This document shows positions 411-64,000 of a stretch of 64,000 nt of DNA, piece after piece. The stretch is from sequence record MN715356; one strand, 5' to 3'. A program made the position numbers and the translations under genes. Source of the stretch: Escherichia phage vB_EcoP_EcoN5. Position 1 is the stretch's first letter; the number at the start of each line of letters is the position of its first letter. The notes beneath the pieces were generated by a model. It was not told the DNA's origin, searched no databases, and saw nothing but the letters and a program-made list of their open reading frames with translations.

Positions 411-3400
411 ATGGCGCTGTATCCAATAAAGTCGTTAGGTGCTGTAGGCGTTATCGCTGATCAGGCTCCTACAGACTTAGCTCCTAATGCTTTCACTAAT
501 GCTATAAATGCTCGATTTGTTGAGCAGAGAGTATTTAAGACGGGGGGCAATGCCCCTCTTTCTTATGTAGATGAAGATAAGGATTTAACCCCTCTGTCTT
601 TCGTTTCTATGCCTTTCGATTATTATAGCGCAGGTAATAGCTTTCTTGTTGTAGGTACAGATAAGAAGTTATATAAACTGACAGATGAAAGCTTGACTGA
701 TATTAGCCGTAAGGTTGCTACAGTCACTAAGAAGGCTTCTGCCTCAATTAAGATTTATCCAGTTGTTTCTCAGATTGTTCCTAAAGAATCAACTATCTCA
801 ATGAACTTCAATCAGACCAAGAATCTAGAGGTTTCTCTTCTCCCTTCTGATGCTAACAATACTGATCTTGTTTGGGAGGTTAGTAACTCATCCTATGGAA
901 GTATTACGGTAGACCCTAGTGACTCTAAACTTGCTACTCTAACATCTTTTGAGAAAGAGGGTAATCTTGTAGTAACTATCTCTACTGCAAATGAGTCCGT
1001 AGTGGCTCAGATTGCTGTTAATATCATCGATGGTGATTCAGGCATCTTCTTGAGTCAAGATACTGTTACAATTCGTAAAGGAGGGACTACTACTCTCACG
1101 GCTGTTACTGGAAAGACCCCTGTAACTTGGTCCAGCAATAACGCTTCTATTGTATCTGTAACCCCTAACGCCAATTCTCTAACTGCTGTAATTACAGCGA
1201 ATGGAGAAGGTAATGTAACAATCACTGCTGATAACGGAACTAAGACTGCTTCTTGTGAGATTGTTTCTATCCCTCAGATTGATAGTATCTCTTTAAGCCA
1301 GTCAGATGTTACTGTGAGCAGAGGTTCTCAGTATATCTTAACTGCTACCCTTTCTCCTGCTAACGCTCCTAATCAAAATATTACTTGGACCTCTTCTAAT
1401 CCAAATATTGCAACAGTATCAGGGACTAGCACACAAGGGACAGTAAATGCTTTACTCGCTGGCTTTACTGAGATTACAGCTACCACTGAAGAAGGCAACA
1501 GGGTTGCTGTCTGTACTGTACGGGTAGACTTAGCTGGTAGGACTATGAGAACAAGTGCTATGGCATTTGCTGATCCTGTGTCAGAGCCAGTAGAATCTCA
1601 AGAGGAAGAAGTAGTAACTCCTTCTGAAAGTGAAGAGACGGTTTATTTTGCTGAGCCTACATCCGGTATCGATACGTCAGGGATGTACGAAGGTAATAAC
1701 TTCTATGACTACTCTAACGTGAATGACATTGAAGGTTTTGCAAGAGCTTCTTTAATGGCAACTCCTTTGTCATCCGTAACCTTAGATGTTGTCAGCGCTT
1801 CTCTCGATGTTGGTGAGGAAATAGTTATTACAGCTACAGCTTCCCCAGAAGGTGATTATTCTTATCAGTGGTCTGTTGATAAGACTGGTTATGTTTCTAC
1901 AACTTCAGTTACTGGTAAATCTGTCAAACTGGTTGCTCTTCGTAAAGGAGAGATTAACGTAACATGTACTGTCAGTCAAATGACTCAGAAAGATTATGAT
2001 GCTTTTGATGACTACCCTTGGTATCATGCTGTAATTTCTAACTGTGCAGTTGCTACAACCCACTATGAAACTCCTCAGGTAAAAGAATTCGAATCAGAAT
2101 ACTTTGTAGACCTTCCGGGATGGGGTGAGCAAACAGTTGTTGATAATGACGGAAACCCTTCAGTTAAGAAGTTTAACTGGAAATGTGAGAGAGTGAGATC
2201 TTTTAACAACCGTCTTTTTGCTCTGAATATGAGAGAGGCTAATGCTTCTGGTGTTACCACTAACTACCCGCTTCGTCTTCGTTGGTCTAACTTTGCCAAT
2301 GAGAATAAGGCTCCTACACTGTGGGATGACTTTGCCTATGATCGAGTTGTGTCTTCGGACTTAGCTTCTAACATCGTAGGGCAGACTCAGGCTCTAGAGA
2401 ATGGGTATGCTGGTTACATCGACTTAGCAGATTCTAATGGTAGCTTGATTGATATCCTACCTCTTAAAGATTACTTGTTCGTTTATACAGAGTTTGAAAC
2501 GTATATTGGTTCTCCGACTAATAACACATACCAACCCCTGATGTTCAAGAAACTCTTTAACGACTCTGGTATCCTTGCTCCTGAGTGTGTGGTTGAAGTA
2601 GAAGGTAGTCACTTCGTAGTTACTCAGAACGATGTAATCTTACACAACGGTGCAACCAAGAAGTCAATTGCATCTAACCGTGTCAAGAACATGCTGATTA
2701 ACGAGGTGTGTCTGGTTAACCCTCTAGCAACTCGAGTTCACTTACATCAGGATAAGAAAGAAGTTTGGGTTCTCTATGTAGGTCCGGGAGAGCCGAAAGA
2801 AAGCTTCGCTTGCACTAAAGCTGCTGTATGGAACTATGAGTTTGATACTTGGTCTTTCCGTACTATCCCTTATGCTCAGTGTATCGGTCTAGTTGATCCT
2901 CCTGTTTTAGAGAGAGGTCCAATCTGGTCTGATTTCCAAGAGATCACTTGGGATGACCCATCTATCAAAGAGCTTGTTTGGAGAAAGGATGCAACAAACT
3001 TTAGACAGAGGGTTACGATAGTAGGTTCGTTCTTGAGGGGATTCTACCAAGTGGATGTAGGTGCTCTTGATTATTTCTATGATAGGTTAAATGATGTTGT
3101 TATAGAGAAGCCTCTGGAAATGAGGTTGGAGAGAACTGGCATAGATTTTGATAATGTGACGAATGAGTGGAATCAGAAGCATATTAACAGATTCCGTCCT
3201 CAGACAACTGGCTCAGGTACTTATATCTTTGAAGCTGGAGGTAGTCAATTCTCAAATGAATATGGACACCCACACACATCTAAGACTTATACAATTGGTG
3301 TTGACAGGCATGTCTCGGTGAGACTGAACCATCCATACCTTTTCTATAATGTTATAGATAATGATGTTAACAGTAATGCCGCTATCAATGGTTTAACGAT

Positions 3401-3428
3401 AGAGTTTGCTGTTGGCGGGCGGAGATAA
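411..3428 (+). CDS. large tail fibre / tailspike-like protein with tandem Ig-like (BIG2-type) repeats
   Basis: 1005-aa ORF with strong RBS; several ~90-aa repeats of pattern 'S.SV.V.P....LTAV..G...ITA..G..A.C.V' typical of bacterial Ig-like group 2 domains. Confidence 0.5.
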   Translation: MALYPIKSLGAVGVIADQAPTDLAPNAFTNAINARFVEQRVFKTGGNAPLSYVDEDKDLTPLSFVSMPFDYYSAGNSFLVVGTDKKLYKLTDESLTDISRKVATVTKKASASIKIYPVVSQIVPKESTISMNFNQTKNLEVSLLPSDANNTDLVWEVSNSSYGSITVDPSDSKLATLTSFEKEGNLVVTISTANESVVAQIAVNIIDGDSGIFLSQDTVTIRKGGTTTLTAVTGKTPVTWSSNNASIVSVTPNANSLTAVITANGEGNVTITADNGTKTASCEIVSIPQIDSISLSQSDVTVSRGSQYILTATLSPANAPNQNITWTSSNPNIATVSGTSTQGTVNALLAGFTEITATTEEGNRVAVCTVRVDLAGRTMRTSAMAFADPVSEPVESQEEEVVTPSESEETVYFAEPTSGIDTSGMYEGNNFYDYSNVNDIEGFARASLMATPLSSVTLDVVSASLDVGEEIVITATASPEGDYSYQWSVDKTGYVSTTSVTGKSVKLVALRKGEINVTCTVSQMTQKDYDAFDDYPWYHAVISNCAVATTHYETPQVKEFESEYFVDLPGWGEQTVVDNDGNPSVKKFNWKCERVRSFNNRLFALNMREANASGVTTNYPLRLRWSNFANENKAPTLWDDFAYDRVVSSDLASNIVGQTQALENGYAGYIDLADSNGSLIDILPLKDYLFVYTEFETYIGSPTNNTYQPLMFKKLFNDSGILAPECVVEVEGSHFVVTQNDVILHNGATKKSIASNRVKNMLINEVCLVNPLATRVHLHQDKKEVWVLYVGPGEPKESFACTKAAVWNYEFDTWSFRTIPYAQCIGLVDPPVLERGPIWSDFQEITWDDPSIKELVWRKDATNFRQRVTIVGSFLRGFYQVDVGALDYFYDRLNDVVIEKPLEMRLERTGIDFDNVTNEWNQKHINRFRPQTTGSGTYIFEAGGSQFSNEYGHPHTSKTYTIGVDRHVSVRLNHPYLFYNVIDNDVNSNAAINGLTIEFAVGGRR

Positions 3429-3434
3429 CAACAA

Positions 3435-3458
3435 GGGGCTTCGTGCCCCTTTTATTGT
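3435..3458 (+). terminator. rho-independent terminator / attenuator hairpin
   Basis: GGGGC-TTCGT-GCCCC hairpin followed by TTTTATTGTTTT between fibre genes. Confidence 0.4.
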
Positions 3459-3471
3459 TTTGGAGGAACTT

Positions 3472-4440
3472 ATGGGTGCAGGTGGTTTTCGTAAGAACAC
3501 TGGTCGCAACAATACCACACTCCCGTACAACGTTGGGTTTCTCAATAATGTACAGGACACAGAAACATATAACGTAGCCGTATATGATGAGCTACAAAAA
3601 GTCAGTACAGCTACTAACCAAATGTTCCAAGCTATTGACGAGATTCACGATGAGATTGATGTTCGTATCAAAGCTCTTCATGCTATGAACCTACAATTCG
3701 ATGAGCTTGAGAATAGAATTACTACAGAGATAGAGACAGCTATTGCCGATATCCAAACACAGATGGGGAACCTCTCCACTGAAGATATTTGGGATAATTC
3801 TGTTCAACCTCCTGTAAAATTAGAAAGCACTGTATCTGGCTTTAAGACGAGTATTGAAGGTAACACAACTAAGATTCAAACGGTAGAAGGTATTGTCAAC
3901 GACCAAGGTCAAGAGATTGCTTTAGTTCAGACAGAGATTCAAAATATTAATGGAAGCCTCTCTCAGTATATGAAACTTTCCGAGTATGAAGCTACGTGGG
4001 GTGTTAACTCTACAGTCAACGGAAGATATGCTGGGGTCAAGTTAACTAACAACGGAACAAACAGCCAATTCCAAGTAACAGCTAACAAATTTATTGTTGG
4101 TGATGGCAACTCTGGTAACACTCCCTTCGTGTTTGAGGGTGGTAGAGCTAGGATGGAGTTCGCTGACATAAAGAACGTCAACATCACAACAGCTCAGATT
4201 GCCAACGCCAGAATCCAATGGGCACAGATTGATAACGTATCTATCTCCAATGCTCAGATTCAGAATTTATCAGCGGATAAAATCACTGCTGGTTCTATGT
4301 GGGGTTCTAACTGGAGACTTACTGTTGGGGGTGACTTTGTTATGGGCGGTACAGGTGGGGCACAATTGTGGATGAATGGTAACAGAATAGATTTCTATGA
4401 TGGAAGTGGTGCTCTAAGAATCAGAATAGGGAGTTGGTAA
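3472..4440 (+). CDS. tail-fibre-like protein (coiled-coil N-terminus, repeat-rich C-terminus)
   Basis: Track ORF 3406-4440; likely start ATG 3472 after GGAGGAACTT; repeated 'AQI.NA.IQ' motifs. Confidence 0.4.
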   Translation: MGAGGFRKNTGRNNTTLPYNVGFLNNVQDTETYNVAVYDELQKVSTATNQMFQAIDEIHDEIDVRIKALHAMNLQFDELENRITTEIETAIADIQTQMGNLSTEDIWDNSVQPPVKLESTVSGFKTSIEGNTTKIQTVEGIVNDQGQEIALVQTEIQNINGSLSQYMKLSEYEATWGVNSTVNGRYAGVKLTNNGTNSQFQVTANKFIVGDGNSGNTPFVFEGGRARMEFADIKNVNITTAQIANARIQWAQIDNVSISNAQIQNLSADKITAGSMWGSNWRLTVGGDFVMGGTGGAQLWMNGNRIDFYDGSGALRIRIGSW

Positions 4441-6272: not shown

Positions 6273-7325
6273 ATGTCTTTATTTGGAAAATCAGCTTCTA
6301 GCAAAACCACAGTGGCCCCTTCCTCTCAGGTTGATGCCCTGCTGAAGCAGATTGTTGCTAATGCTCAGAATATGCAGAACAACGATCCGGGATTCATCTC
6401 CCAACAGCTGGCTGGGTTTAATGGCAATCAACAGGGCGCTCTGAATAACTTAGCAGCTTCTACAACTCAGAAGCAATTAGCTGATATGTACACACCACGT
6501 ACACAGCAAGGGTTGGACCAACTAAACTCTCTTGCCCAGCAGTATCAGAATATTGTCAATGGTGGTGGTCTAACTGCTGATAGTGTTAATAACTTCAGTA
6601 AAGGGTTGAATAACTCAGCTCTTGCTCAGGCTACTAGCAAAGCAGCTTCTAATGTTTCTCTTGGCAATGGCTCTGATTCAGGCTCTCTCCGTAGGGCTGC
6701 GGCTCAAGGTGCTGCCCTGAATGGTGCTAATACAAATCTATCTCGTACCATCAATGGTAAGAACATGGGAATCAGTGCTCTTCAACAAGACCAGAACTTC
6801 CAGAGAGGTTTGCTTGGTGCTCAGTCCGGTTTAGCTGGACAGAATCTCAATCTTGGTGCTCAAGGTGTTCAGGCAACTCAACAAGCTATTCAGAATCAGC
6901 TGATGGCTGGTAATCTGCAACAGCAACAAGCTCAAGCTCAAGCGGATATTAATTGGCAAAATGCTATTGGCTCTCAGCAGTATGGGTGGAATCAGCTTAA
7001 CAATCAGCTTAATGTATTAAACAGTGTAAGCCCAATGGCTGGGTATACGATTAAGAATGCTGCTCCGGGAGTCAATGCTGGACAACAGCTCCTAGGTGCT
7101 GGTATCACTGGTTTAGGTATTGCGGGTCGTATGGGTGCTTTCTCCCCTAACCAACAGACTCAGAATGCTTGGAGTTCTTATAACAACTCAGGTGGGCAAT
7201 CTGGAATGGCTGGTCCTATGATTGGAGGTTCTAATCTTTCTCAACAGAAAGGTCAATCTAACTGGTTATCCACAACGGGTAATAATATCTTAGGCGGAGT
7301 CTTAGGGGCATTTGGAGCAAACTAA
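6273..7325 (+). CDS. Gln/Asn/Gly-rich virion protein
   Basis: 350-aa low-complexity Q/N/G/A-rich ORF with RBS AAGGAGG in the structural operon. Confidence 0.4.
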   Translation: MSLFGKSASSKTTVAPSSQVDALLKQIVANAQNMQNNDPGFISQQLAGFNGNQQGALNNLAASTTQKQLADMYTPRTQQGLDQLNSLAQQYQNIVNGGGLTADSVNNFSKGLNNSALAQATSKAASNVSLGNGSDSGSLRRAAAQGAALNGANTNLSRTINGKNMGISALQQDQNFQRGLLGAQSGLAGQNLNLGAQGVQATQQAIQNQLMAGNLQQQQAQAQADINWQNAIGSQQYGWNQLNNQLNVLNSVSPMAGYTIKNAAPGVNAGQQLLGAGITGLGIAGRMGAFSPNQQTQNAWSSYNNSGGQSGMAGPMIGGSNLSQQKGQSNWLSTTGNNILGGVLGAFGAN

Positions 7326-7337
7326 AGGAGATTTAAT

Positions 7338-8306
7338 ATGGCACTTTTCGGAGGCGGGGGTAGTAAAACTACTTCCCAAATGATTCGCCCTGAATATATT
7401 CAACAGTATATTGACCAGCTTAACCAGCAGATTGGTAATACTAGTTCAGGGGATTATGTCTATCGTGACAACGTAGGATTTAATAACAACCAGACAGAAG
7501 CTCTTAATAATTTGGCTCAATCCGGTGCTCTAGGGACTCTCTCACAACAATACATGGATGCAGCAGGTCAGGGATTGGGTTATCTCGATAACGCCTATAA
7601 AGGTTATCAGAGCCTCTCTGGACAAGGCGGGATTACTGGAGAACAGATTGGTGCTCTTGCTGGTCAACTGTATGACGACGATGCTGTTCAGGCAGCTATT
7701 ACAGCTAATAACGAACAAGTTCAACAGAACCTAGCACGTAATGCTCTTCCTCAATTGGCTCAACAGTATGCTGGTCAGCAGGGTTCAGGTGCTCGTATGG
7801 CTAAATCTTTTGCTCAGGGTGATGCTCTGAATCAGATGCAAAATCAAGCAACAGATATTACCAATAGTGCTTATAACTCGGCTATCAACCAAGCTGAAAG
7901 CATTCTCTCTGGTAATAGACAGAATCAGGCAGCTGCTCTCTCGGGCCTTTCTACTATTGGTTCTAACCTTTCTAACCTAGGTCAGCAGGGTGCTAATTTG
8001 TCTCAACAGCAAATAATGAATCAGTGGAATGCAGGGTTGCAGCAACAACAGCAACAACAGAATGAATATGATAATGCCTACCAGAATGCTCAGAACGCAG
8101 CTAATTGGGGATGGCAAGATATCAATAACCAACTCGGTGCAGCAGGTGTACTTAACGGTGCTCTCGGACAAACTACAACTACTAAAACATCTGGTGGCAA
8201 AGGTGGTTTCCTTGGTGGAGCTATGAGTGGTGCAGCAGCAGGTTCTTCCTTTGGGCCTTGGGGTGCATTAGCTGGGGGTGTAATCGGTGGGTTGGCTAGT
8301 ACTTAA
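7338..8306 (+). CDS. Gln/Asn/Gly-rich virion protein (similar composition to 6273-7325)
   Basis: 322-aa ORF, RBS AAGGAG; shares 'NNQ..ALNNLA' style segments with upstream gene. Confidence 0.4.
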   Translation: MALFGGGGSKTTSQMIRPEYIQQYIDQLNQQIGNTSSGDYVYRDNVGFNNNQTEALNNLAQSGALGTLSQQYMDAAGQGLGYLDNAYKGYQSLSGQGGITGEQIGALAGQLYDDDAVQAAITANNEQVQQNLARNALPQLAQQYAGQQGSGARMAKSFAQGDALNQMQNQATDITNSAYNSAINQAESILSGNRQNQAAALSGLSTIGSNLSNLGQQGANLSQQQIMNQWNAGLQQQQQQQNEYDNAYQNAQNAANWGWQDINNQLGAAGVLNGALGQTTTTKTSGGKGGFLGGAMSGAAAGSSFGPWGALAGGVIGGLAST

Positions 8307-9995: not shown

Positions 9996-10004
9996 TAATG
10001 TATA
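9996..10004 (+). promoter_or_regulatory. candidate phage-sigma promoter element TAATGTATA
   Basis: Exact 9-mer ~40 nt upstream of ATG 10043 in sense orientation; same 9-mer on the minus strand upstream of two minus-strand genes. Confidence 0.3.
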
Positions 10005-19828: not shown

Positions 19829-19837
19829 TATACATTA
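19829..19837 (-). promoter_or_regulatory. candidate phage-sigma promoter element TAATGTATA
   Basis: Exact 9-mer on minus strand ~60 nt upstream of SSB start in a 390-bp AT-rich intergenic region. Confidence 0.3.
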
Positions 19838-46860: not shown

Positions 46861-48057
46861 TTATTTTCCTAAAAATAATCCGCTCATGACACCATCCCAC
46901 TCAGAGGAAGGAATCACTGAATACTCCGAACTTTGGTCCAGAGTCCCACTACTAAATCGCTGAACAATGTTGTAGATGTTGAACAGGTCTTTAGTCTCGG
47001 CACGAATGCCGTAGATTAGCCTGTTAGCTGTTTTCTCATTTTTAGACACGCGACGGGTAAAGTTAACCAAAAGATTATCACCTTTAAGTATCTCTGACCC
47101 ATCTTTTACTAGATCGGGGTGCATCACTGGCAAGAACATTGAGTTGTTAACTCGTAATTCTGCTGTTTCATCATTCTCATAATGAATCCACTTAAAGTCT
47201 TCATCACGGAAATGACCACACCCATCTCTGTATGACTGTTGACGCCAAGGAACTTGAAATGCTTCAGAGTGTTTATCAGCCATGCCGACTGTAAACAGCG
47301 ACGCTGGGAAGATACAAGCATCCCAATCATTACCAACCAGAGTTGCTTTCGTTTCCCCTAAGAGGTTAGTGTAAGTGCTAACCATTCGTGAGTAAACGTA
47401 AGCCTGAAGAATTGTCCAGCCTTCAACCAACCATTTATGAAGGAAGGTTTCAACTTGACTCTCTTCATCTTCGCAATAGAAGGTTCTATCTAACATTAAA
47501 TAGAACAGACAACGATCAGCAGGAACATTCTCAGTTGCTACCCCCATAAAGCCTTTCTCGTGCCAGCGTAAACAGGAGGGACGATCTTTGTCCACAAATG
47601 CTTCCATAGCTTCCAGTACAGCACGAGGTGTGGTTCGATATTCAGGGTTTTTGTCGTTCCAACGATCAATGTTATTCTTAGGAGGTGTGTCTTCATCTTC
47701 ATACGAACACCAACTTAAAGCTTCAGCTACGTGCTTTTCATCACGCCAGCGTCTAAAACCTAACATCTTCATGTGAGTTCCGGAGTTCCAGATATGCTTG
47801 ATTTTACACATATCCATCTCTCGGCTTAACAGGAATTCTTCCCCATCAGCACTACGAACGTTAGCCTCTTCATGCCACACTCGAACGTGCATATTCCACC
47901 CATGAGTTGCCTCATACATGTTAGGGTCGAAGTATTCATCTTCGTCATCATCTTCATCAACGCCACCGTTATAGTTGCGAAGCTGAAGGAACCCATAACA
48001 AGGAGGGTTGACCGTTAAAACATTACCTTCAGTATCTTCTAATGTTACTGGAAACAT
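46861..48057 (-). CDS. hypothetical protein; first 54 codons lie inside the duplicated segment
   Basis: 398-aa ORF with acidic N-terminal 'DEDDDEDEY' stretch. Confidence 0.4.
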   Translation of the reverse strand: MFPVTLEDTEGNVLTVNPPCYGFLQLRNYNGGVDEDDDEDEYFDPNMYEATHGWNMHVRVWHEEANVRSADGEEFLLSREMDMCKIKHIWNSGTHMKMLGFRRWRDEKHVAEALSWCSYEDEDTPPKNNIDRWNDKNPEYRTTPRAVLEAMEAFVDKDRPSCLRWHEKGFMGVATENVPADRCLFYLMLDRTFYCEDEESQVETFLHKWLVEGWTILQAYVYSRMVSTYTNLLGETKATLVGNDWDACIFPASLFTVGMADKHSEAFQVPWRQQSYRDGCGHFRDEDFKWIHYENDETAELRVNNSMFLPVMHPDLVKDGSEILKGDNLLVNFTRRVSKNEKTANRLIYGIRAETKDLFNIYNIVQRFSSGTLDQSSEYSVIPSSEWDGVMSGLFLGK

Positions 48058-48068
48058 TATACCAACCT

Positions 48069-48431
48069 CTATTGGTTTTTAATCAACTCAATCGACTTAC
48101 GGATATAAAGAATATCTCGGAAGTTTCGATAGTTGTTCATAAATTGGTGCTTCTGGAAAGTAGCTTCTTCCAGAGCTTTCTTTGCTTCTGCGTAATTTTT
48201 ACGGGCAAGATGTACAACCCGCTCTGGTAACACATTTGCACGACGGATGATATACTTGTGAGCTTTCATGTTGCTTTGCTCACGAGCAATCTTACATTTA
48301 GCAACTTTGATACCATTTGCAATCCAAGCAAGTTCTTGCTCAAGCTCATCGTTGGACATTCCACCGAGATTTGATGCAACCTTGTTCAGAGTTTCAATAT
48401 TAACGTTGCCCTTAATGGGACGTGTATTCAT
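48069..48431 (-). CDS. hypothetical protein (copy 1)
   Basis: 120-aa ORF, basic, helical; duplicated at 49587-49949. Confidence 0.4.
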   Translation of the reverse strand: MNTRPIKGNVNIETLNKVASNLGGMSNDELEQELAWIANGIKVAKCKIAREQSNMKAHKYIIRRANVLPERVVHLARKNYAEAKKALEEATFQKHQFMNNYRNFRDILYIRKSIELIKNQ

Positions 48432-48433
48432 AC

Positions 48434-48586
48434 TTACTCCTGTTGTTTACACTCGTCAATAACCCACTGATAAGTGGATTGCCCAGAAAAGAAACACTGA
48501 ATAAATCCAGATGTTCTCTGCGTTACCAGTGCTAGTGCACAAATCACTACCGCTGCTGCTAGCAGTTTTAAATCTAATTTAGACAT
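48434..48586 (-). CDS. small membrane / signal-peptide protein (copy 1)
   Basis: Hand-translated ~50-aa ORF 'MSKLDLKLLAAAVVICALALV...' with RBS GAGGAAAT; below track cutoff. Confidence 0.3.
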   Translation of the reverse strand: MSKLDLKLLAAAVVICALALVTQRTSGFIQCFFSGQSTYQWVIDECKQQE

Positions 48587-48823
48587 ATTTCCTCTCATTG
48601 AATTTAAAAAAGGACTCTCCGAAAAGAGCCAAGCTTTAAATCCAAAAAAAGATATTACCCAATATCTGTGGATAACCTGCTCTTAAAATATCTATCCGAC
48701 GGATGTTTGAGGAACACTCCTCTCCCTAGCATCGGCCCCATACGGGAAATATATTAAGATTAGGTTAGTTGAGTCAGAATAACTCACATAGCCCTCCGAG
48801 GAAGGCTATAGGTGTTACTACAA

Positions 48824-49039
48824 CTAAAAATCACCTGATTTTACAAAATCATCACTAAGAATTTCGTCAATCTCTTTGCTAGTCAAATCTTTCCTGAACC
48901 AGCAACAAGGTACATCCACCCATTGACCAGAGTTGTTTTCTACAGAGCATCTATTGCCTGTCTTACTCTTGCACTTATAGGTTTTACCTTTGTCTAGACG
49001 GTAGTGTATTCTGTAAACGATCGACACAAGTGTTATCAT
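48824..49039 (-). CDS. Cys-containing small protein (copy 1)
   Basis: 71-aa ORF with 'CKSKTGNRC...PCCW'. Confidence 0.35.
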   Translation of the reverse strand: MITLVSIVYRIHYRLDKGKTYKCKSKTGNRCSVENNSGQWVDVPCCWFRKDLTSKEIDEILSDDFVKSGDF

Positions 49040-49272
49040 TACTCGCCTTTCTTAGCACGATCTTTGGCAGTTTTGCCAGTGCGGATGCGATGGGAAACGT
49101 TAACCAGAGTGCCACCATCAACTACGGTAACGCTCTTGTTTTTAGCCAGATCGAACACAGTTTTCTCCGTGCCACCCAAGCGAATTTGCTTAGGCTCACT
49201 GAAGGTTTGGGTTGATTTAGATTGGAACTGAAACGGTTGACGGATTGCATCAATTGCACTTACTTTAGACAT
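49039..49272 (-). CDS. hypothetical protein (copy 1)
   Basis: 77-aa ORF preceded by hairpin and conserved motif. Confidence 0.4.
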   Translation of the reverse strand: MSKVSAIDAIRQPFQFQSKSTQTFSEPKQIRLGGTEKTVFDLAKNKSVTVVDGGTLVNVSHRIRTGKTAKDRAKKGE

Positions 49273-49586
49273 AGTGGAAATTCCTTAAAAAGTTATGGCT
49301 GCGTAGAGGGAATTCCCTACGCAAATTGGGCCGCCTAAAAAGAGGCGTCATAGTACTAAAAGGAGGAGAGAAGAGGGCTTATTTAGCTACCTTTTTCTGT
49401 CCGTTTACAAACCCCACCCATGAGTTGCCTCATACATGTTAGGGTCGAAGTATTCATCTTCGTCATCATCTTCATCAACGCCACCGTTATAGTTGCGAAG
49501 CTGAAGGAACCCATAACAAGGAGGGTTGACCGTTAAAACATTACCTTCAGTATCTTCTAATGTTACTGGAAACATTATACCAACCT

Positions 49587-49949
49587 CTATTGGTTTTTAA
49601 TCAACTCAATCGACTTACGGATATAAAGAATATCTCGGAAGTTTCGATAGTTGTTCATAAATTGGTGCTTCTGGAAAGTAGCTTCTTCCAGAGCTTTCTT
49701 TGCTTCTGCGTAATTTTTACGGGCAAGATGTACAACCCGCTCTGGTAACACATTTGCACGACGGATGATATACTTGTGAGCTTTCATGTTGCTTTGCTCA
49801 CGAGCAATCTTACATTTAGCAACTTTGATACCATTTGCAATCCAAGCAAGTTCTTGCTCAAGCTCATCGTTGGACATTCCACCGAGATTTGATGCAACCT
49901 TGTTCAGAGTTTCAATATTAACGTTGCCCTTAATGGGACGTGTATTCAT
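49587..49949 (-). CDS. hypothetical protein (copy 2, identical to 48069-48431)
   Basis: Identical translation. Confidence 0.4.
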   Translation of the reverse strand: MNTRPIKGNVNIETLNKVASNLGGMSNDELEQELAWIANGIKVAKCKIAREQSNMKAHKYIIRRANVLPERVVHLARKNYAEAKKALEEATFQKHQFMNNYRNFRDILYIRKSIELIKNQ

Positions 49950-50341
49950 ACTTACTCCTGTTGTTTACACTCGTCAATAACCCACTGATAAGTGGATTGC
50001 CCAGAAAAGAAACACTGAATAAATCCAGATGTTCTCTGCGTTACCAGTGCTAGTGCACAAATCACTACCGCTGCTGCTAGCAGTTTTAAATCTAATTTAG
50101 ACATATTTCCTCTCATTGAATTTAAAAAAGGACTCTCCGAAAAGAGCCAAGCTTTAAATCCAAAAAAAGATATTACCCAATATCTGTGGATAACCTGCTC
50201 TTAAAATATCTATCCGACGGATGTTTGAGGAACACTCCTCTCCCTAGCATCGGCCCCATACGGGAAATATATTAAGATTAGGTTAGTTGAGTCAGAATAA
50301 CTCACATAGCCCTCCGAGGAAGGCTATAGGTGTTACTACAA

Positions 50342-50557
50342 CTAAAAATCACCTGATTTTACAAAATCATCACTAAGAATTTCGTCAATCTCTTTGCTAG
50401 TCAAATCTTTCCTGAACCAGCAACAAGGTACATCCACCCATTGACCAGAGTTGTTTTCTACAGAGCATCTATTGCCTGTCTTACTCTTGCACTTATAGGT
50501 TTTACCTTTGTCTAGACGGTAGTGTATTCTGTAAACGATCGACACAAGTGTTATCAT
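50342..50557 (-). CDS. Cys-containing small protein (copy 2)
   Basis: Identical translation to 48824-49039. Confidence 0.35.
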   Translation of the reverse strand: MITLVSIVYRIHYRLDKGKTYKCKSKTGNRCSVENNSGQWVDVPCCWFRKDLTSKEIDEILSDDFVKSGDF

Positions 50558-50790
50558 TACTCGCCTTTCTTAGCACGATCTTTGGCAGTTTTGCCAGTGC
50601 GGATGCGATGGGAAACGTTAACCAGAGTGCCACCATCAACTACGGTAACGCTCTTGTTTTTAGCCAGATCGAACACAGTTTTCTCCGTGCCACCCAAGCG
50701 AATTTGCTTAGGCTCACTGAAGGTTTGGGTTGATTTAGATTGGAACTGAAACGGTTGACGGATTGCATCAATTGCACTTACTTTAGACAT
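50557..50790 (-). CDS. hypothetical protein (copy 2)
   Basis: Identical translation to 49039-49272. Confidence 0.4.
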   Translation of the reverse strand: MSKVSAIDAIRQPFQFQSKSTQTFSEPKQIRLGGTEKTVFDLAKNKSVTVVDGGTLVNVSHRIRTGKTAKDRAKKGE

Positions 50791-51021
50791 AGTGGAAATT
50801 CCTTAAAAAGTTATGGCTGCGTAGAGGGAATTCCCTACGCAAATTGGGCCGCCTAAAAAGAGGCGTCATAGTACTAAAAGGAGGAGAGAAGAGGGCTTAT
50901 TTAGCTACCTTTTTCTGTCCGTTTACAAACCAGATAATCGAACCGTCAGGCTGTCGTTGACCGAAGCCTTTTTGGTTAATCATATCGTCATAAGAATATG
51001 CTTTACGTCTCATTTGTTTTC

Positions 51022-53433: not shown

Positions 53434-53509
53434 TGGTGCACCCTACAGGACTCGAACCTGTAACCAACGACTTAGAAGGTCGCTGCTCTGTCCATTGAGC
53501 TAAGGGTGC
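53434..53509 (-). tRNA. tRNA-Arg (anticodon UCU)
   Basis: 76-nt cloverleaf: acceptor GCACCCT/AGGGTGC, D-stem GCTC/GAGC, anticodon stem GCGAC/GTCGT with loop CTTCTAA, T-arm ACAGG-TTCGAGT-CCTGT, encoded CCA. Confidence 0.85.
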
Positions 53510-59444: not shown

Positions 59445-59888
59445 CTACTTAACCCTTGCTTCTTTGATGGGGTCAATGTATTTTTCAACTCCCCACTTGT
59501 GTTTACTATCTGCGTAGAAAACATCAGGAGCACACTGACTTGTCTTAGGAAATGCCTGAGGGTCTTTCGTGCTACCTTTAAACTTCTGTTTACCACGGGT
59601 GCGACCATTACAGAAGATTTCTAACTTCTTCTCCTCTTCTGTTTTAGCTCCCCCGCTCTTTAACAAAGAACGTTTATGATCGGCTAACAATAACGCATCA
59701 GCACGATGAACACGATGGCCTACACGCTTTGCCACACTAGAAGGAATATGGGATTCAGCTTCAGCCTTTGCAGCACGACGTTTTAAACTGCGCTTGCTGA
59801 CGTGATTGGTTGCCTTTGGCTTCTCTTTCTCCAGTTCAGAGATAGAAAAACAACGCCCGCCCTTCATGCTGATTTTTGATTTAGCCAC
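59445..59888 (-). CDS. basic protein, function unknown
   Basis: 147-aa Lys/Arg-rich ORF. Confidence 0.4.
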   Translation of the reverse strand: MAKSKISMKGGRCFSISELEKEKPKATNHVSKRSLKRRAAKAEAESHIPSSVAKRVGHRVHRADALLLADHKRSLLKSGGAKTEEEKKLEIFCNGRTRGKQKFKGSTKDPQAFPKTSQCAPDVFYADSKHKWGVEKYIDPIKEARVK

Positions 59889-60388: not shown

Positions 60389-60612
60389 TTTCTTAATCCC
60401 AACTTTCTTAAAACACGGCCTAACGTTGTTTCTTGCGTGATAACATAGCTGATCGCTTCCCGTTCCAACGTTTCAATCATCATTGGCGACGGATACCATT
60501 CACCAGTAAGCATACATTTGCACTCAACGCCATACTTTTTAGATAGTCGGTAATGTTGACCGTTGACAAGATTCCTATAAACCGTAGTATGCGTAACTAA
60601 CATGATTGTCAC
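60385..60612 (-). CDS. hypothetical protein
   Basis: 75-aa co-directional ORF. Confidence 0.35.
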   Translation of the reverse strand: MTIMLVTHTTVYRNLVNGQHYRLSKKYGVECKCMLTGEWYPSPMMIETLEREAISYVITQETTLGRVLRKLGLRK

Positions 60613-60661
60613 CTTTGATTAAATTCTTTGATTAGCCCACTGAATCAATGCACTGATAAAA

Positions 60662-60691
60662 GAAAAGGCGCTACCCGTTAAGATAGCGCCT
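60662..60691 (-). terminator. rho-independent terminator
   Basis: GGCGCTA-N10-TAGCGCC hairpin followed on the minus strand by TTTCTTTT. Confidence 0.45.
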
Positions 60692-60714
60692 TATGCTTAT
60701 TTGGATTGTCTTAC

Positions 60715-61623
60715 TTATGCCGCCTGACGTGCCGCCATAATTTCAGCCGCTTTGCGCAATACTTCTTCTTCTTCTGCTTTCGCAGCTTGTTCGGTACGGG
60801 TAGCAACCGTTGAAGAGATACGACCGCGCAGACTTTCTAACTTCTCCTGCATTTTGGCAATGGTGGATTCCATTTCATCGGCATACGAATCTAGTGACTC
60901 CAATTCTTTGCTCGATGCGTTCATCAGATAATCGTCGGAGATCGCTACCGTTGAGGCCGTGACTTTCTTGATGAGTGAGTCGAATGACTTCTTAACCTTG
61001 CCGACTTCTTCACTTAAGGCAATAGTGTTATCACTGGTAGCGCCGTTGCGCTCATCAGCCAGCAATTTGGCTTCAATACGGATCGCATTCAAGCGTTCAA
61101 CTAAAGCGTAAATATCCTGATTAAAATCTTCCTTGTTTTTCGCCGGGATTTGAAGGTGGGCCGCCACGTTGTCATTGCAGCCTTTAAAGAAGTTAGGGTT
61201 ATCCACTTCAATTTCACGGCCTAAAGCAAAATTCTCGAAAGCATTCGACCAGCGAGCGCGGTTTTGTTCCATTTTGGCCTTAATTTGCGCTTCTTTCGCA
61301 TCTTCTTTCGCTTTCGCCTCACCTTCCAGATTAATCCACTTCTTACGACCGTTTGCCGCCTCGGTGTTATATTTGATAGGCGTTAGGAAAGTAATTGCAG
61401 TGGCGATCACGTCCATATCGCGGAAACGTTCAGTTAACAGAAAATCAATCGCCGACTGCAATACATCTAACTTTTTACCGTTGCTGCGGAAGTGCTGCAA
61501 ATGCCCTAACAAAAAGTTAGAAACATCTTGTTTGATTGCCGCGTTATTGCTACGAATGTTGTTAGCCAGTGCGTTAAAACCAGATTCTTTTACCAGATTA
61601 AAAACTTTAGCCATGATATTCAC
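60715..61623 (-). CDS. first gene of the minus-strand arm, function unknown (N-terminal domain plus C-terminal coiled coil)
   Basis: 302-aa ORF with RBS; lies just downstream of the long noncoding promoter region. Confidence 0.45.
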   Translation of the reverse strand: MNIMAKVFNLVKESGFNALANNIRSNNAAIKQDVSNFLLGHLQHFRSNGKKLDVLQSAIDFLLTERFRDMDVIATAITFLTPIKYNTEAANGRKKWINLEGEAKAKEDAKEAQIKAKMEQNRARWSNAFENFALGREIEVDNPNFFKGCNDNVAAHLQIPAKNKEDFNQDIYALVERLNAIRIEAKLLADERNGATSDNTIALSEEVGKVKKSFDSLIKKVTASTVAISDDYLMNASSKELESLDSYADEMESTIAKMQEKLESLRGRISSTVATRTEQAAKAEEEEVLRKAAEIMAARQAA

Positions 61624-62527
61624 CTTTCAATTGTAAGGGCACTATGCCCCGCTCTCTATGAGCTTTTTAAGTCACTATTGACTTATCTATAACCACTCAC
61701 TTTTTAAGTAGTCATAGGTAAGTGGGGCGGTCTTATCAGGAGTTAACCTTGCCGCCCCCTTATCCGTGATGTTTCATCTGGTATCTTTAATTAGTCGCTA
61801 TAAACGAAGCCGACCTGACAGCGATGATCAATCATCACAATAAGGCTATGCGTCCGACTCTATTTAATTACATTGCTGTAACCGTCGGCAATATCGTCCA
61901 CTTTGTTTTCGCTCCCGCTTATCCTTTTATATCAGCTCTCTATCGCTAGTCATCGCCCACTACGGGATACTATTGCGAAAGAGTCACTAACCGCCTAGTA
62001 TTCCGGCGTTTTATATCTTTCAGCAGGTTTACTACATAACCCGACTATGTACTTTCATCTTGTGATGAATCTCAAGCCGCTCACATCGTAAACGTTCGCA
62101 TTAAACCTTATTGTTAAATAGCAATTTGCCACTTTTTAACCACTCCCCGCCGCTCTCAATTGAGCGTTAATTAGTCGGGCTTGTCTACCCTGATTGACTT
62201 CTTTCACTGTAGCACCGTGTTAGCGATGGCCTCCGCTACCCTTAACCGTGGGCGATTAGCTTAAGCCGTTGCGTGTACTCAATGAATCCGTTTATCAGTG
62301 GTGACGTTTCCAGTAAGGGAATGTAAAACTGTTTACCCTGATAGTCTAGGGAGTTTTACGCCGTTTTATCTGGTATGTTTTCCGATGGTTATTATCGTCC
62401 AACATATTAAACCGATATAGGAGAATGTTTAAATTATTAAAGAGCGGTAAATCTGTCGAAGTGCTTTCTCACTTCCCGCCACCGTTCGCCGTGGTTTCGC
62501 GTTTCACTAGTTGCCTAGTGAGTGCTC

Positions 62528-62556
62528 ATTATGAATCATGCTGTTTTAGCTGTCAA
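62528..62556 (-). promoter_or_regulatory. sigma70-type promoter (TTGACA-17 bp-CATAAT)
   Basis: On minus strand: TTGACA, 17-bp spacer, CATAAT, with A-rich upstream tract. Confidence 0.5.
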
Positions 62557-63150
62557 CCGCTTTTTTAATCTTTTTCATCGTTCCCGCTATTGGGAGGATA
62601 TATCAATCAGCTATGTTTGATTGAAGATTAAGCGGCAAGGCTTAACTTATGATTCATATTTTTAAAGAGCGGTGTTTCTTATTACTAATCGTTAACGTTG
62701 TTTTGTTAACTTGTGGTTAGTATGAACTACTTTAACCACGTTTGCAATCTCTTTTTTATCATCTTCTTTTATTCCGTTCCCTTATCTCGCGTGAATCTAT
62801 GCGAAAGGGCAAGATGATAAGTCTGATTTGTCTTTTAGGAATCTAGTGCGCTTTCAAGCATCGACCATTTGAAAGTATCGAACAAATGAGGCTTATTTTG
62901 TTGCTCATCGTCCGCCTGTTCACGTATGAATCAGGAATCAATTCTAGCGGTCAACTAAGCGCCTTATAGTAATGACGTTGCCGCCACCTGTAAGACAAAT
63001 CATATTTTTAAAGAGCGTGCGGCTCACATAACACCGCTTGATAATCAGTTAACCTATGATTATTCAGGGGCATAGTATCCGCTTGCCTACGTCTGACTTG
63101 CTTCACTCACTAGGGAGTTACTTGAGCGGTCATCTTGTCTTTCTAAGCTC

Positions 63151-63179
63151 ATTATAGGTCAGGCTTTTCGGTTGTCAAT
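63151..63179 (-). promoter_or_regulatory. consensus sigma70 promoter (TTGACA-17 bp-TATAAT)
   Basis: On minus strand: perfect TTGACA, 17-bp spacer, perfect TATAAT, A-tract UP-like element upstream. Confidence 0.6.
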
Positions 63180-64000
63180 ACTCTTTTTAAGAATATTTTC
63201 ACTTTCTAGCCTGATTTTTAAAGAGCGGGGCAAGTTTCCTTGCCTTGTATGTTTTACATCGTACCCGATAGAAATGAGTATACGCCAATCAGTTGGGGAT
63301 GCAATAGGGTAAAGCAAAATATTTTAAACTTTTTCACTATGGGAAGGTAAAAGAGCGGGCGAACGTGATACATCATAGAAAACGGCTTGTAAAGCCATAA
63401 TAAGCGGCCTAAAACGCACTATAGCGAGCTAAAAGGGAGTAAGGAATACAATCACCTTAGAAAAGAAAAAAGCCCCATAAGGAAAGCAAGTACAACGCTA
63501 GCGCTACGGGTAGCAGACCAACATACCAAGACAAACGGGCAACATACAACCGCAGAATAGACCACGGGGAAACATGCCAGATAGTGCGGTAATAATATAC
63601 CACTTAAATAATTAGTTAACTATTAATAGCATTACTCAAACATCAAACGTTAAAAGAAAAAGAATAAAAGAACGCTGAAAAAAGAAAGAATAAAAAGAAT
63701 ATAATAACTGTTAATTACTATCATCCACTTAATTAATACATATATCATTATTACACTCATAATCATTACTATTGAAACTATTTACATTCAAACTGTGGGG
63801 AGCTGTGACTGTTACATGACGGTATTATTATCATGGTTATGAATGTGCCTATACTAGTTTATACAGTGCTGGCCTTTCTCCTACTCTTTAAAGGGGAACT
63901 AAATAAACGGGTAGGTAATGTAATAGATGACATATACGGGGAAAGAATAACGGGGAGTAGGCACGGGGAAAGGTGGAACGTTGAAAGGGAAGGTAAAGGC

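Follow-up and report, generated by a model that had tools for sequence, protein, structure and literature searches.

A putative BoxA array and a conserved structured leader RNA in the early control region of phiEco32-like phages

The right-hand 2.4 kb of a 64,000-nucleotide stretch of Escherichia phage vB_EcoP_EcoN5 (sequence record MN715356; the whole stretch is called the window, and all positions are counted in it) raise the question of what a phage region devoid of recognizable genes is doing. Between 61615 and 64000 there is no open reading frame (ORF) of at least 60 amino acids (aa) on either strand, the longest being 54, 52 and 47 aa, as the original prediction had stated. We propose, with a probability of roughly 0.7, that this region, at the right end of a phiEco32-like genome, holds the control elements of early transcription and the early leader, and that transcription through it is assisted by BoxA elements and Nus factors.

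By its sequence relatives, the source phage is a phiEco32-like podophage of the subfamily Gordonclarkvirinae. The 2.4-kb region is matched at 80-95% identity by 96 phage records, all of them Gordonclarkvirinae podophages of E. coli or Shigella, and the genera found among the phiEco32-related matches are Kuravirus, Suseptimavirus and Nieuwekanaalvirus. The phiEco32 counterpart is an unannotated spacer of 1,944 base pairs (bp) between gp124 and gp125. A spacer of roughly 1.8-2.3 kb is present in every relative examined, and the whole layout of promoters, BoxA copies and leader is conserved in every sequenced relative. The ORF-free DNA is a composite and not a single element. It comprises the right end with its terminal repeat (63494-64000), a promoter/BoxA array (62430-63360, minus strand) and an untranslated leader (61615-62520, minus strand). 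The promoters, the repeat and the leader had been noticed from the sequence before, but the rightmost 0.5 kb had not been recognized as genome end and terminal repeat.

Two strong sigma70-type promoters point leftward from this region, towards the early genes. Promoter P1 (63151-63200, minus strand) carries the −35 hexamer TTGACA at 63178-63173 and the −10 hexamer TATAAT at 63156-63151, matching the consensus at 12 of 12 positions, with an A-rich upstream tract at 63200-63179. The perfect leftward promoter reported at 63151 is real, except that its spacer measures 16 bp instead of 17. Its predicted start, near 63144, lies 1.53 kb ahead of the ATG of gp124, the first early gene. Promoter P2 (62528-62576, minus strand) has TTGACA at 62556-62551, a 17-bp spacer and CATAAT at 62533-62528 (11 of 12 positions), confirming the near-consensus leftward promoter described at 62528-62556. 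An A-rich tract resembling an UP element occupies 62576-62557, and the predicted start is near 62521. P1 and P2 are the only sites in the region with 11 or 12 matching positions. Weaker promoter-like matches are not enriched as a class (10 found, 8.2 expected).

Promoters of the P1/P2 type are conserved across 17 relatives, and every genome examined has two to four consensus or near-consensus sigma70 promoters interleaved with BoxA copies. That sigma70 early promoters lie here is already known. Three of them were described in the spacer of phage SU10, the same number as in phiEco32, with the early genes transcribed leftward from them (PMC4281155), and PMC4281155 and PMC8948821 place the phiEco32 early promoters in the same spacer. 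The hexamers, spacing and orientation found here are those of such promoters, and their activity is predicted. The promoter motif of the phage sigma factor gp36, TAATGTATA, has no match within the ORF-free region. Elsewhere in the window, exact matches occur at 9996, 19829, 19901 and 27194, those at 19829 (minus strand) and 19901 (plus strand) forming a divergent pair.

The direct repeat that accompanies these promoters reads cGCTCTTTAAnAAT on the strand transcribed from P1 and P2, or CCGCTCTTTAAAAAT in its longer form. BoxA is the RNA site that is bound by NusB–S10. The gamma-proteobacterial BoxA consensus is GYTCTTTAANA (Baniulyte et al. 2017, PMC5725501), and exact matches to it occur five times in the window, against 0.58 expected, a number reached in none of 100 shuffles. 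Of these, four cluster inside 800 bp of the minus strand, at 63226, 63016, 62670 and 62445. The shorter word CGCTCTTTA behaves in the same way (five occurrences against 0.41 expected, 0 of 100 shuffles reaching five, and four of the five copies on the minus strand inside 800 bp). The repeat had been counted as five copies. Four are good (TTTAAAGAGCG plus flanks, at 62429, 62654, 63000 and 63210), but the fifth is degenerate.

In the order in which the gp124 start is left behind, BoxA-1 (GCTCTTTAATA, 62435-62445, minus strand) follows the predicted P2 start, at about +77, and precedes the gp124 ATG by 831 nucleotides (nt). BoxA-2 (GCTCTTTAAAA, 62660-62670, minus strand) is followed by hairpins at 62645-62628 and 62624-62603. 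BoxA-3 (GCTCTTTAAAA, 63006-63016, minus strand) is at about +129 from the predicted P1 start, and BoxA-4 (GCTCTTTAAAA, 63216-63226, minus strand) is upstream of P1, separated by 48 bp from its −35 hexamer. The degenerate copy (GGTAAAAGAGC / GCTCTTTTACC, 63346-63356, minus strand) has two mismatches to the BoxA consensus, and in the form GCTCTTTTACC it resembles lambda nutR CGCTCTTACAC. All copies share the strand of P1, P2 and gp124 and fall in untranslated RNA, where folding predicts them to be single-stranded. The fifth exact consensus match in the window, CGCTCTTTAACAA at 59655-59665 (plus strand), is identical to the BoxA of the ribosomal RNA (rrn) operons and runs antisense within the gene at 59445-59888. 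It also occurs in IMEP8, Bas94 and O18-011, is missing from other relatives, and is probably due to chance or coding constraint.

Searching related genomes for the motif gave 75 exact BoxA copies on the transcribed strand of 18 phages, compared with none on the opposite strand of the same spacers (three genera, 43.7 kb). The 14-nt core cGCTCTTTAAnAAT is constant while its flanks vary; positions 0-8, 10 and 11 are identical in 75 of 75 instances. Copy number per spacer is four or five in all eight of the relatives first examined and three to five in the set of 18 phages, with three in EP335. Each strong promoter has a BoxA 15-130 nt past its predicted start, and a unit consisting of BoxA, 47-49 bp and a −35 hexamer recurs in all relatives, being duplicated in Bas94 and LAMP.

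Direct repeats inside a long ORF-free region, with a block of 23% GC content at about 63600-63800 near the genome end, had suggested an iteron-type origin, in which a phage or host initiator would bind the five repeats and the nearby AT-rich DNA would melt. Iterons are typically closely and regularly spaced. Here, however, the repeats follow one another at uneven intervals of 134, 210, 225 and 346 bp, which differ among relatives through gain and loss of modules, and over 250 bp separate the AT-rich block from the closest repeat. Moreover, all 75 copies in the 18 phages stand on the transcribed strand, are interleaved with promoters and match the consensus of an RNA element exactly, so that an origin of this kind is extremely unlikely and that part of the original prediction is not supported. 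Since they are irregularly spaced, confined to the transcribed strand and identical to the BoxA consensus, the repeats are best read as Nus-factor (NusB/S10) sites in RNA, a prediction from sequence, position and conservation.

The copies could instead serve the early promoters as DNA, either as distal UP-like or curved A-tract sequences or as an operator for a regulator of the phage or the host. In agreement with this, one class of copies keeps a fixed distance of 47-49 bp from the −35 hexamer in all relatives, the motif includes the A-tract TTTAAAAAT, and PMC12276001 reports that phiEco32 gp79 shuts off sigma70 transcription. The same source has gp79 binding RNA polymerase and not DNA, however, and the invariant part of the motif is the BoxA-defining GCTCTTT core instead of the A-tract alone. 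Copies outside this class are 60-350 bp away from any promoter or solely downstream of promoters, and the invariant BoxA-1 is located 77 nt past the P2 start with no promoter downstream of it. A role at the DNA level is thus considered unlikely, while the BoxA copies are quite likely functional as RNA sites, recruiting Nus factors and conferring resistance to Rho.

What follows the last promoter is an untranslated leader of about 0.9 kb (61615-62520, minus strand) running from P2 to gp124. It is present at full length in 96 of 96 Gordonclarkvirinae records and annotated in almost none. The distance from the last BoxA to the gp124 ATG, 831 nt here, is 825-836 nt in 11 of 12 relatives. Identity between genera is 84-89% for the leader and 73-76% for the adjoining gp124 coding sequence. 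This better conservation indicates that the leader is under purifying selection as non-coding sequence.

Such conservation might come from coding if the region held unannotated small protein genes or decayed pseudogenes. Some depositors, for example those of CHD5UKE1 and EK5, have annotated many tiny ORFs here, and many relatives have an antisense ORF of 34-55 aa. No ORF of at least 30 aa is common to the relatives on the transcribed strand, however, and the antisense ORF is lost or shifted in the most divergent phages, TH34, PAS59 and Bas94. The region is unannotated in most records, and compensatory substitutions occur within helices along its whole length. The non-coding character claimed for the region holds against conserved small genes, which have next to no probability as an explanation.

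The compensatory substitutions come from a MAFFT alignment of 18 phages that was not fitted to structure, with a consensus fold obtained by RNAalifold. The fold has 236-255 base pairs; at 79 of them both partners have changed in a compensatory way, and pairing holds in 98.3% of the alignment cells. When partners were shuffled, 38 ± 3 compensatory pairs were counted and none of 500 shuffles reached 79; when partners were slid, the count was 8-14. Fifteen column-shuffled alignments, refolded, gave 8-18 compensatory pairs and energies of −222 to −251 kcal/mol, in comparison with 79 and −417 kcal/mol for the real alignment. The fold belongs to the leftward RNA, since G–U cells (415, with seven pairs invariant) far outnumber A–C cells (22) and pairing falls from 98.3% of cells on the transcribed strand to 89.2% on the mirrored opposite strand. 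On this covariation, the leader is almost certainly a conserved, structured, multi-domain RNA. The suggestion of strong early promoters with long structured leaders or non-coding RNAs (ncRNAs) is borne out, as the promoters point leftward into about 0.9-1.5 kb of untranslated RNA with covariation support.

A strong promoter followed by a long, untranslated, structure-constrained RNA in a gene-free region is also what would be expected of a replication primer or R-loop origin RNA, comparable to ColE1 RNA II or the T4 ori transcripts, in which folding would control hybrid formation. Nevertheless, neither a G- or C-rich stretch suited to hybrid formation nor an adjoining unwinding element was noticed in the leader, whose GC content is uniform at 0.40-0.46, and the transcript runs directly into a ribosome-binding site and the early operon. 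The 39 helices over 0.8 kb are far above those of known primer RNAs, and the model gives BoxA no role. This explanation is accordingly regarded as very unlikely.

The predicted fold consists of three domains closed by long-range helices (62427-62141, 62112-61839 and 61838-61766), with a series of hairpins on their 3´ side; all elements are on the minus strand. The P2 transcript would begin with three hairpins (62460-62520), at 62520-62505, 62494-62479 (CCACGGCGAACGGUGG) and 62473-62460 (AGUGAGAAAGCACU). The first of them is the palindrome CACTAGTTGCCTAGTG at 62505-62520, noticed earlier, which is real and folds well (z = −3.45). These 5´ hairpins show compensatory changes in relatives (CAACGGCUAACAGUUG), and in xGUGAGAAAGCACx´ the closing pair is A–U, C–G, U–A or G–C. 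Domain I (62141-62427), of about 290 nt, is closed by the helix 62427-62420/62148-62141 and contains the inner helices 62406-62401/62379-62374, 62373-62366/62316-62310, 62359-62348/62339-62323, 62305-62290/62198-62183, 62286-62273/62216-62203 and 62166-62162/62155-62151.

Several single-stranded stretches are invariant. One of them is the segment GCAAAUUGCUAUUUAACAAUAAGGU (62105-62132), identical in the 18 phages; it includes a small hairpin (62132-62118), and its 3´ half takes part in the helix that closes domain II. Within it, the 13-mer UGCUAUUUAACAA (62123-62111) resembles BoxA with one mismatch, at position C4. Domain II (61839-62112), of about 270 nt, is closed by the long-range helix 62112-62097/61852-61839, in which ACAAUAAGGU...AGUGUG pairs with CACAcu.GCCUUAUUGU. 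Nested within it are the helices 62094-62088/61901-61895 and 62027-62022/61919-61914, all six pairs of the latter covarying. In LAMP (3013-3885; alignment columns around 440-560), the peripheral hairpins of this domain are swapped for unrelated sequence about 35 nt longer while the enclosing helices are kept, and the replacement behaves as the variable or expansion segments of structured RNAs do.

Domain III (61766-61838) is made of the helices 61838-61817/61785-61766 and 61815-61808/61799-61793, with two-sided changes at six pairs. The 3´ hairpins (61636-61762) follow at 61762-61719, 61717-61687, 61685-61668, 61663-61651 and 61650-61636, and helices 34 and 36 in this series have five covarying pairs each. 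The GGGGCGG/CCGCCCC hairpin pointed out earlier is the first of them (GGGGGCGG...CCGCCCC, 61719-61762), capped by the invariant 21-nt loop CAAGGUUAACUCCUGAUAAGA (61751-61731). Some motifs recur in the leader. AAAnAUACCAGAUrAAAC is found twice, 592 nt apart (62368-62374 and 61776-61782), and GGUUAA three times, always invariant (62242-62247, 62136-62141 and 61743-61748), one of these copies forming the palindrome GUUAAC inside the invariant 21-nt loop. The recurring motifs could be sites of protein binding or of loop–loop contact. The idea of a CsrA sponge was dropped, as GGA motifs occur at about chance frequency by eye.

Searches for this RNA elsewhere returned to the same group of phages. 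A covariance-model scan of 60500-64000 against Rfam 15 gave no match at E ≤ 1, and at E ≤ 10 the part from 61600 to 62560 gave four chance-level matches (E = 2.2-9.8, 15-20 bits against gathering thresholds of 34-98). The leader is not host-derived, as it has no match in 5,426 E. coli genomes. In IMG/VR, a search with the gp124 protein retrieved five loci, all from known phages, and a search with two invariant RNA motifs retrieved only the same five. A metagenome scan with the loop motif yielded 36 loci, seven of them real and all seven within the Gordonclarkvirinae clade. The more distant Salmonella phage 7-11 has no BoxA at its early promoters, no similarity to the leader and no gp124 homologue as its first early gene, so that the arrangement cannot be traced beyond Gordonclarkvirinae. 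In phage 7-11, about 1 kb without annotated genes (6865-7917) extends from the right end to the first early gene, gp151.

According to the proposed mechanism, the host RNA polymerase would start at P1 or P2 and transcribe a BoxA within about 80-130 nt. The nascent BoxA would recruit NusB/S10, NusA, NusG and SuhB to form an N-independent, Rho-resistant complex of the ribosomal RNA (rRNA)-operon type. The modified complex would cross 0.9-1.5 kb of untranslated RNA and proceed into the early genes, and may also aid the co-transcriptional folding of the long-range leader helices, as proposed for rRNA. BoxA has been found to shield long untranslated transcripts of clustered regularly interspaced short palindromic repeats (CRISPR) from Rho (PMC7665894), and the Nus complex has been proposed to help in folding rRNA (PMC5725501). 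The folded leader, starting with its 5´ hairpins, could be a cis part of the early mRNA, affecting its stability or controlling gp124 translation, or it could be an independent RNA.

Several points weigh against this mechanism. The function of the BoxA copies is a prediction from their sequence, position and conservation. BoxA-4 and the fifth copy are on the upstream side of the strongest promoter. In this phage no strong promoter precedes them: the gp128 promoter that would transcribe them in phiEco32 is deleted, and only promoter-like sites with 9 of 12 matching positions remain to their right; they may be vestiges of module duplication or have a role at the DNA level. The fixed distance of 47-49 bp between BoxA and the −35 hexamer could likewise reflect a DNA-level role or mere duplication of a module. 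According to PMC5725501, rRNA resists Rho intrinsically, and the Nus complex serves there chiefly in folding. A highly structured leader might therefore do without BoxA for read-through. The distant phage 7-11, moreover, lacks BoxA at its early promoters. Finally, when 58 nt were folded from each BoxA copy, no boxB-type hairpin was found at a fixed distance; BoxA-2 alone has a nearby hairpin, and its 6-nt loop varies. No N-like protein was recognized by Pfam or PHROG among the five early proteins beside the region. These two results leave a lambda-type mechanism unsupported and make an rrn-type, N-independent mechanism the reading by default.

A bolder proposal, which we regard as doubtful, is that the leader represents a new class of large phage ncRNA, the first product of every Gordonclarkvirinae phage, made by a BoxA/Nus-modified polymerase in the style of rRNA and acting as RNA itself. 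Possible roles would be in host takeover, as an anti-defence decoy or as a scaffold, and self-association through the invariant loop containing GUUAAC is possible. In addition, multiple BoxA copies on very abundant transcripts could divert Nus factors from the rRNA operons of the host. Gordonclarkvirinae phages have been described as unusually resistant to restriction–modification, with no known inhibitor (PMC11990801).

The downstream boundary of the ORF-free region is the gp124 homologue, the first early gene (60715-61614, minus strand; 299 aa, phrog_13018). The region does end at an ORF, as had been described, but the gene starts at the ATG at 61614, conserved among relatives, and not at the GTG at 61623. 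A Shine–Dalgarno sequence, AAGGTG, lies at 61626-61621 (minus strand). RNAalifold also drew a helix between UUACC, just 5´ of BoxA-1, and GGUGA of this Shine–Dalgarno sequence; it was rejected, both sides being invariant and two phages breaking it. The five early proteins beside the region have no Pfam match, and all their PHROG families are without an assigned function. One of them, the very basic 147-aa homologue of gp120 (phrog_11641, 59445-59888, minus strand), has an R/K-rich stretch, KRSLKRRAAKAEAE, which loosely resembles the arginine-rich motif of lambda N.

At the other boundary, positions 63872-64000 are the first 130 nt of a direct terminal repeat of about 193 bp and are 92% identical to phiEco32 positions 2-130. 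In phiEco32, positions 1-193 equal the last 193 nt, as checked at both genome ends. The unique non-coding right-end sequence (63494-63871), homologous to phiEco32 77001-77361, contains the 23% GC block, which adjoins the terminal repeat, has A-rich direct repeats at 63645-63708 and might serve in packaging, in ejection or as an origin. The AT skew changes sign at about 63250-63300, after which the plus strand is strongly A-rich. The motif ACGGGGA(A/G) occurs four times (63564-63572 and 63936-63975), with three copies clustered inside the terminal repeat, and is a possible terminase or end-recognition signal. With respect to phiEco32 and SU10, a deletion junction lies at 63460-63494, where the phage lacks the gp125-128 operon together with its promoter and its terminator's 5´ arm. 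The remnant GGGGCUUUUUUCUUUUC (63460-63476, minus strand) corresponds to the 3´ arm and U-tract of an intrinsic terminator located after gp125 in both SU10 and phiEco32. The same operon is missing from LAMP and Bas92-94, so the shortened right end is common to the source phage and the small-genome (67-69 kb) Kuravirus clade.

Elsewhere in the window, 47896-49413 is repeated in tandem at 49414-50931. This duplication of 1,518 bp is 100% identical, doubles a 120-aa ORF (48069-48431 and 49587-49949, minus strand) and could be a genuine recent event or an assembly artefact. A tRNA/tmRNA scan matched only a tRNA-Arg, at 53434.

The BoxA array and the structured leader RNA appear to be previously undescribed, and the leader is probably a new RNA family. 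The searchable literature, whose scope leaves out the primary phiEco32 papers (Savalia 2008, Pavlova 2012), is silent on BoxA and Nus factors in these phages, as it is on any structured or non-coding RNA of theirs, and does not treat the passage of phiEco32 early transcripts over about 1-1.5 kb of untranslated sequence. As the promoters have been reported while BoxA, Nus factors and the RNA go unmentioned there, the proposal would be a new application of rrn-type BoxA antitermination, to a phage early leader. A survey calls these phages' molecular biology "only poorly studied" and leaves their resistance to restriction systems unexplained (PMC11990801), and the authors of the study of phage 7-11 wrote that its antitermination strategy "remains to be defined". 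A BoxA route would supply a mechanism of that kind. phiEco32 is a model for phage control of the host RNA polymerase, through its sigma factor gp36 and its sigma70 inhibitor gp79; if the proposal is true, the array would mean that a virulent phage exploits the Nus machinery of its host in the rRNA manner, independently of N. Among the ncRNAs of bacteria and phages, one of about 0.8 kb that combines 79 covarying pairs with long-range helices is rare, and the leader offers a tractable system (E. coli host, BASEL isolates) for following a large structured RNA in the first minutes of infection. For annotation practice, the calling of small ORFs in this spacer should cease.

Among known systems, lambda nutL and nutR also place BoxA in phage early transcripts just downstream of early promoters, and the phage repeat differs from lambda nutL boxA plus spacer (CGCTCTTAAAAAT in the lambda record) by a single inserted T. 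Unlike lambda, however, the present region lacks a fixed-distance boxB hairpin with a 5-nt loop, no N-like protein was recognized among the five early proteins, and the source phage is not lambdoid but a virulent podophage that has a sigma factor of its own. The BoxA sites of CRISPR array leaders (PMC7665894) and of the suhB 5´ untranslated region (PMC5725501) share the same consensus and likewise precede long untranslated RNA vulnerable to Rho. Those are single chromosomal sites, whereas the phage has an array interleaved with promoters.

Phage T7 has its early promoters A1-A3 at the leading genome end, with gene 0.3 following almost immediately. In both arrangements, a cluster of very strong promoters of host type points inward from within about 1-1.5 kb of the early-gene end; neither BoxA nor a long structured leader is known to follow A1-A3. 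OLE, GOLLD, ROOL and raiA are large structured ncRNAs of bacteria and phages, GOLLD and ROOL being also phage-associated. The leader falls in the same size class (0.6-0.8 kb) and is likewise multi-domain and covariation-supported, with invariant loops. Unlike them, it has no Rfam match, is restricted to Gordonclarkvirinae of E. coli and Shigella, and forms the 5´ leader of an mRNA.

The rrn leaders of E. coli have tandem P1/P2 promoters, BoxA together with boxB and boxC, and an antitermination complex of Nus factors and SuhB. With the rrn leader, the differences are that the phage has four or five BoxA copies instead of one per leader, that its RNA is without similarity to rRNA and continues into protein-coding early genes, and that Nus binding is predicted. 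The rrn boxC is not established in the phage, where a BoxA-like sequence followed by GUGUG (62123-62097) offers a loose resemblance only. The likenesses are extensive. Both have strong sigma70 promoters arranged in tandem and preceded by A-rich tracts, a BoxA of the same sequence soon after the start (GCUCUUUAAnAAU in the phage and GCUCUUUAACAAU in rrn), no need, as proposed here, for a phage N protein, and then a long untranslated structured RNA whose domains are closed by long-range helices.

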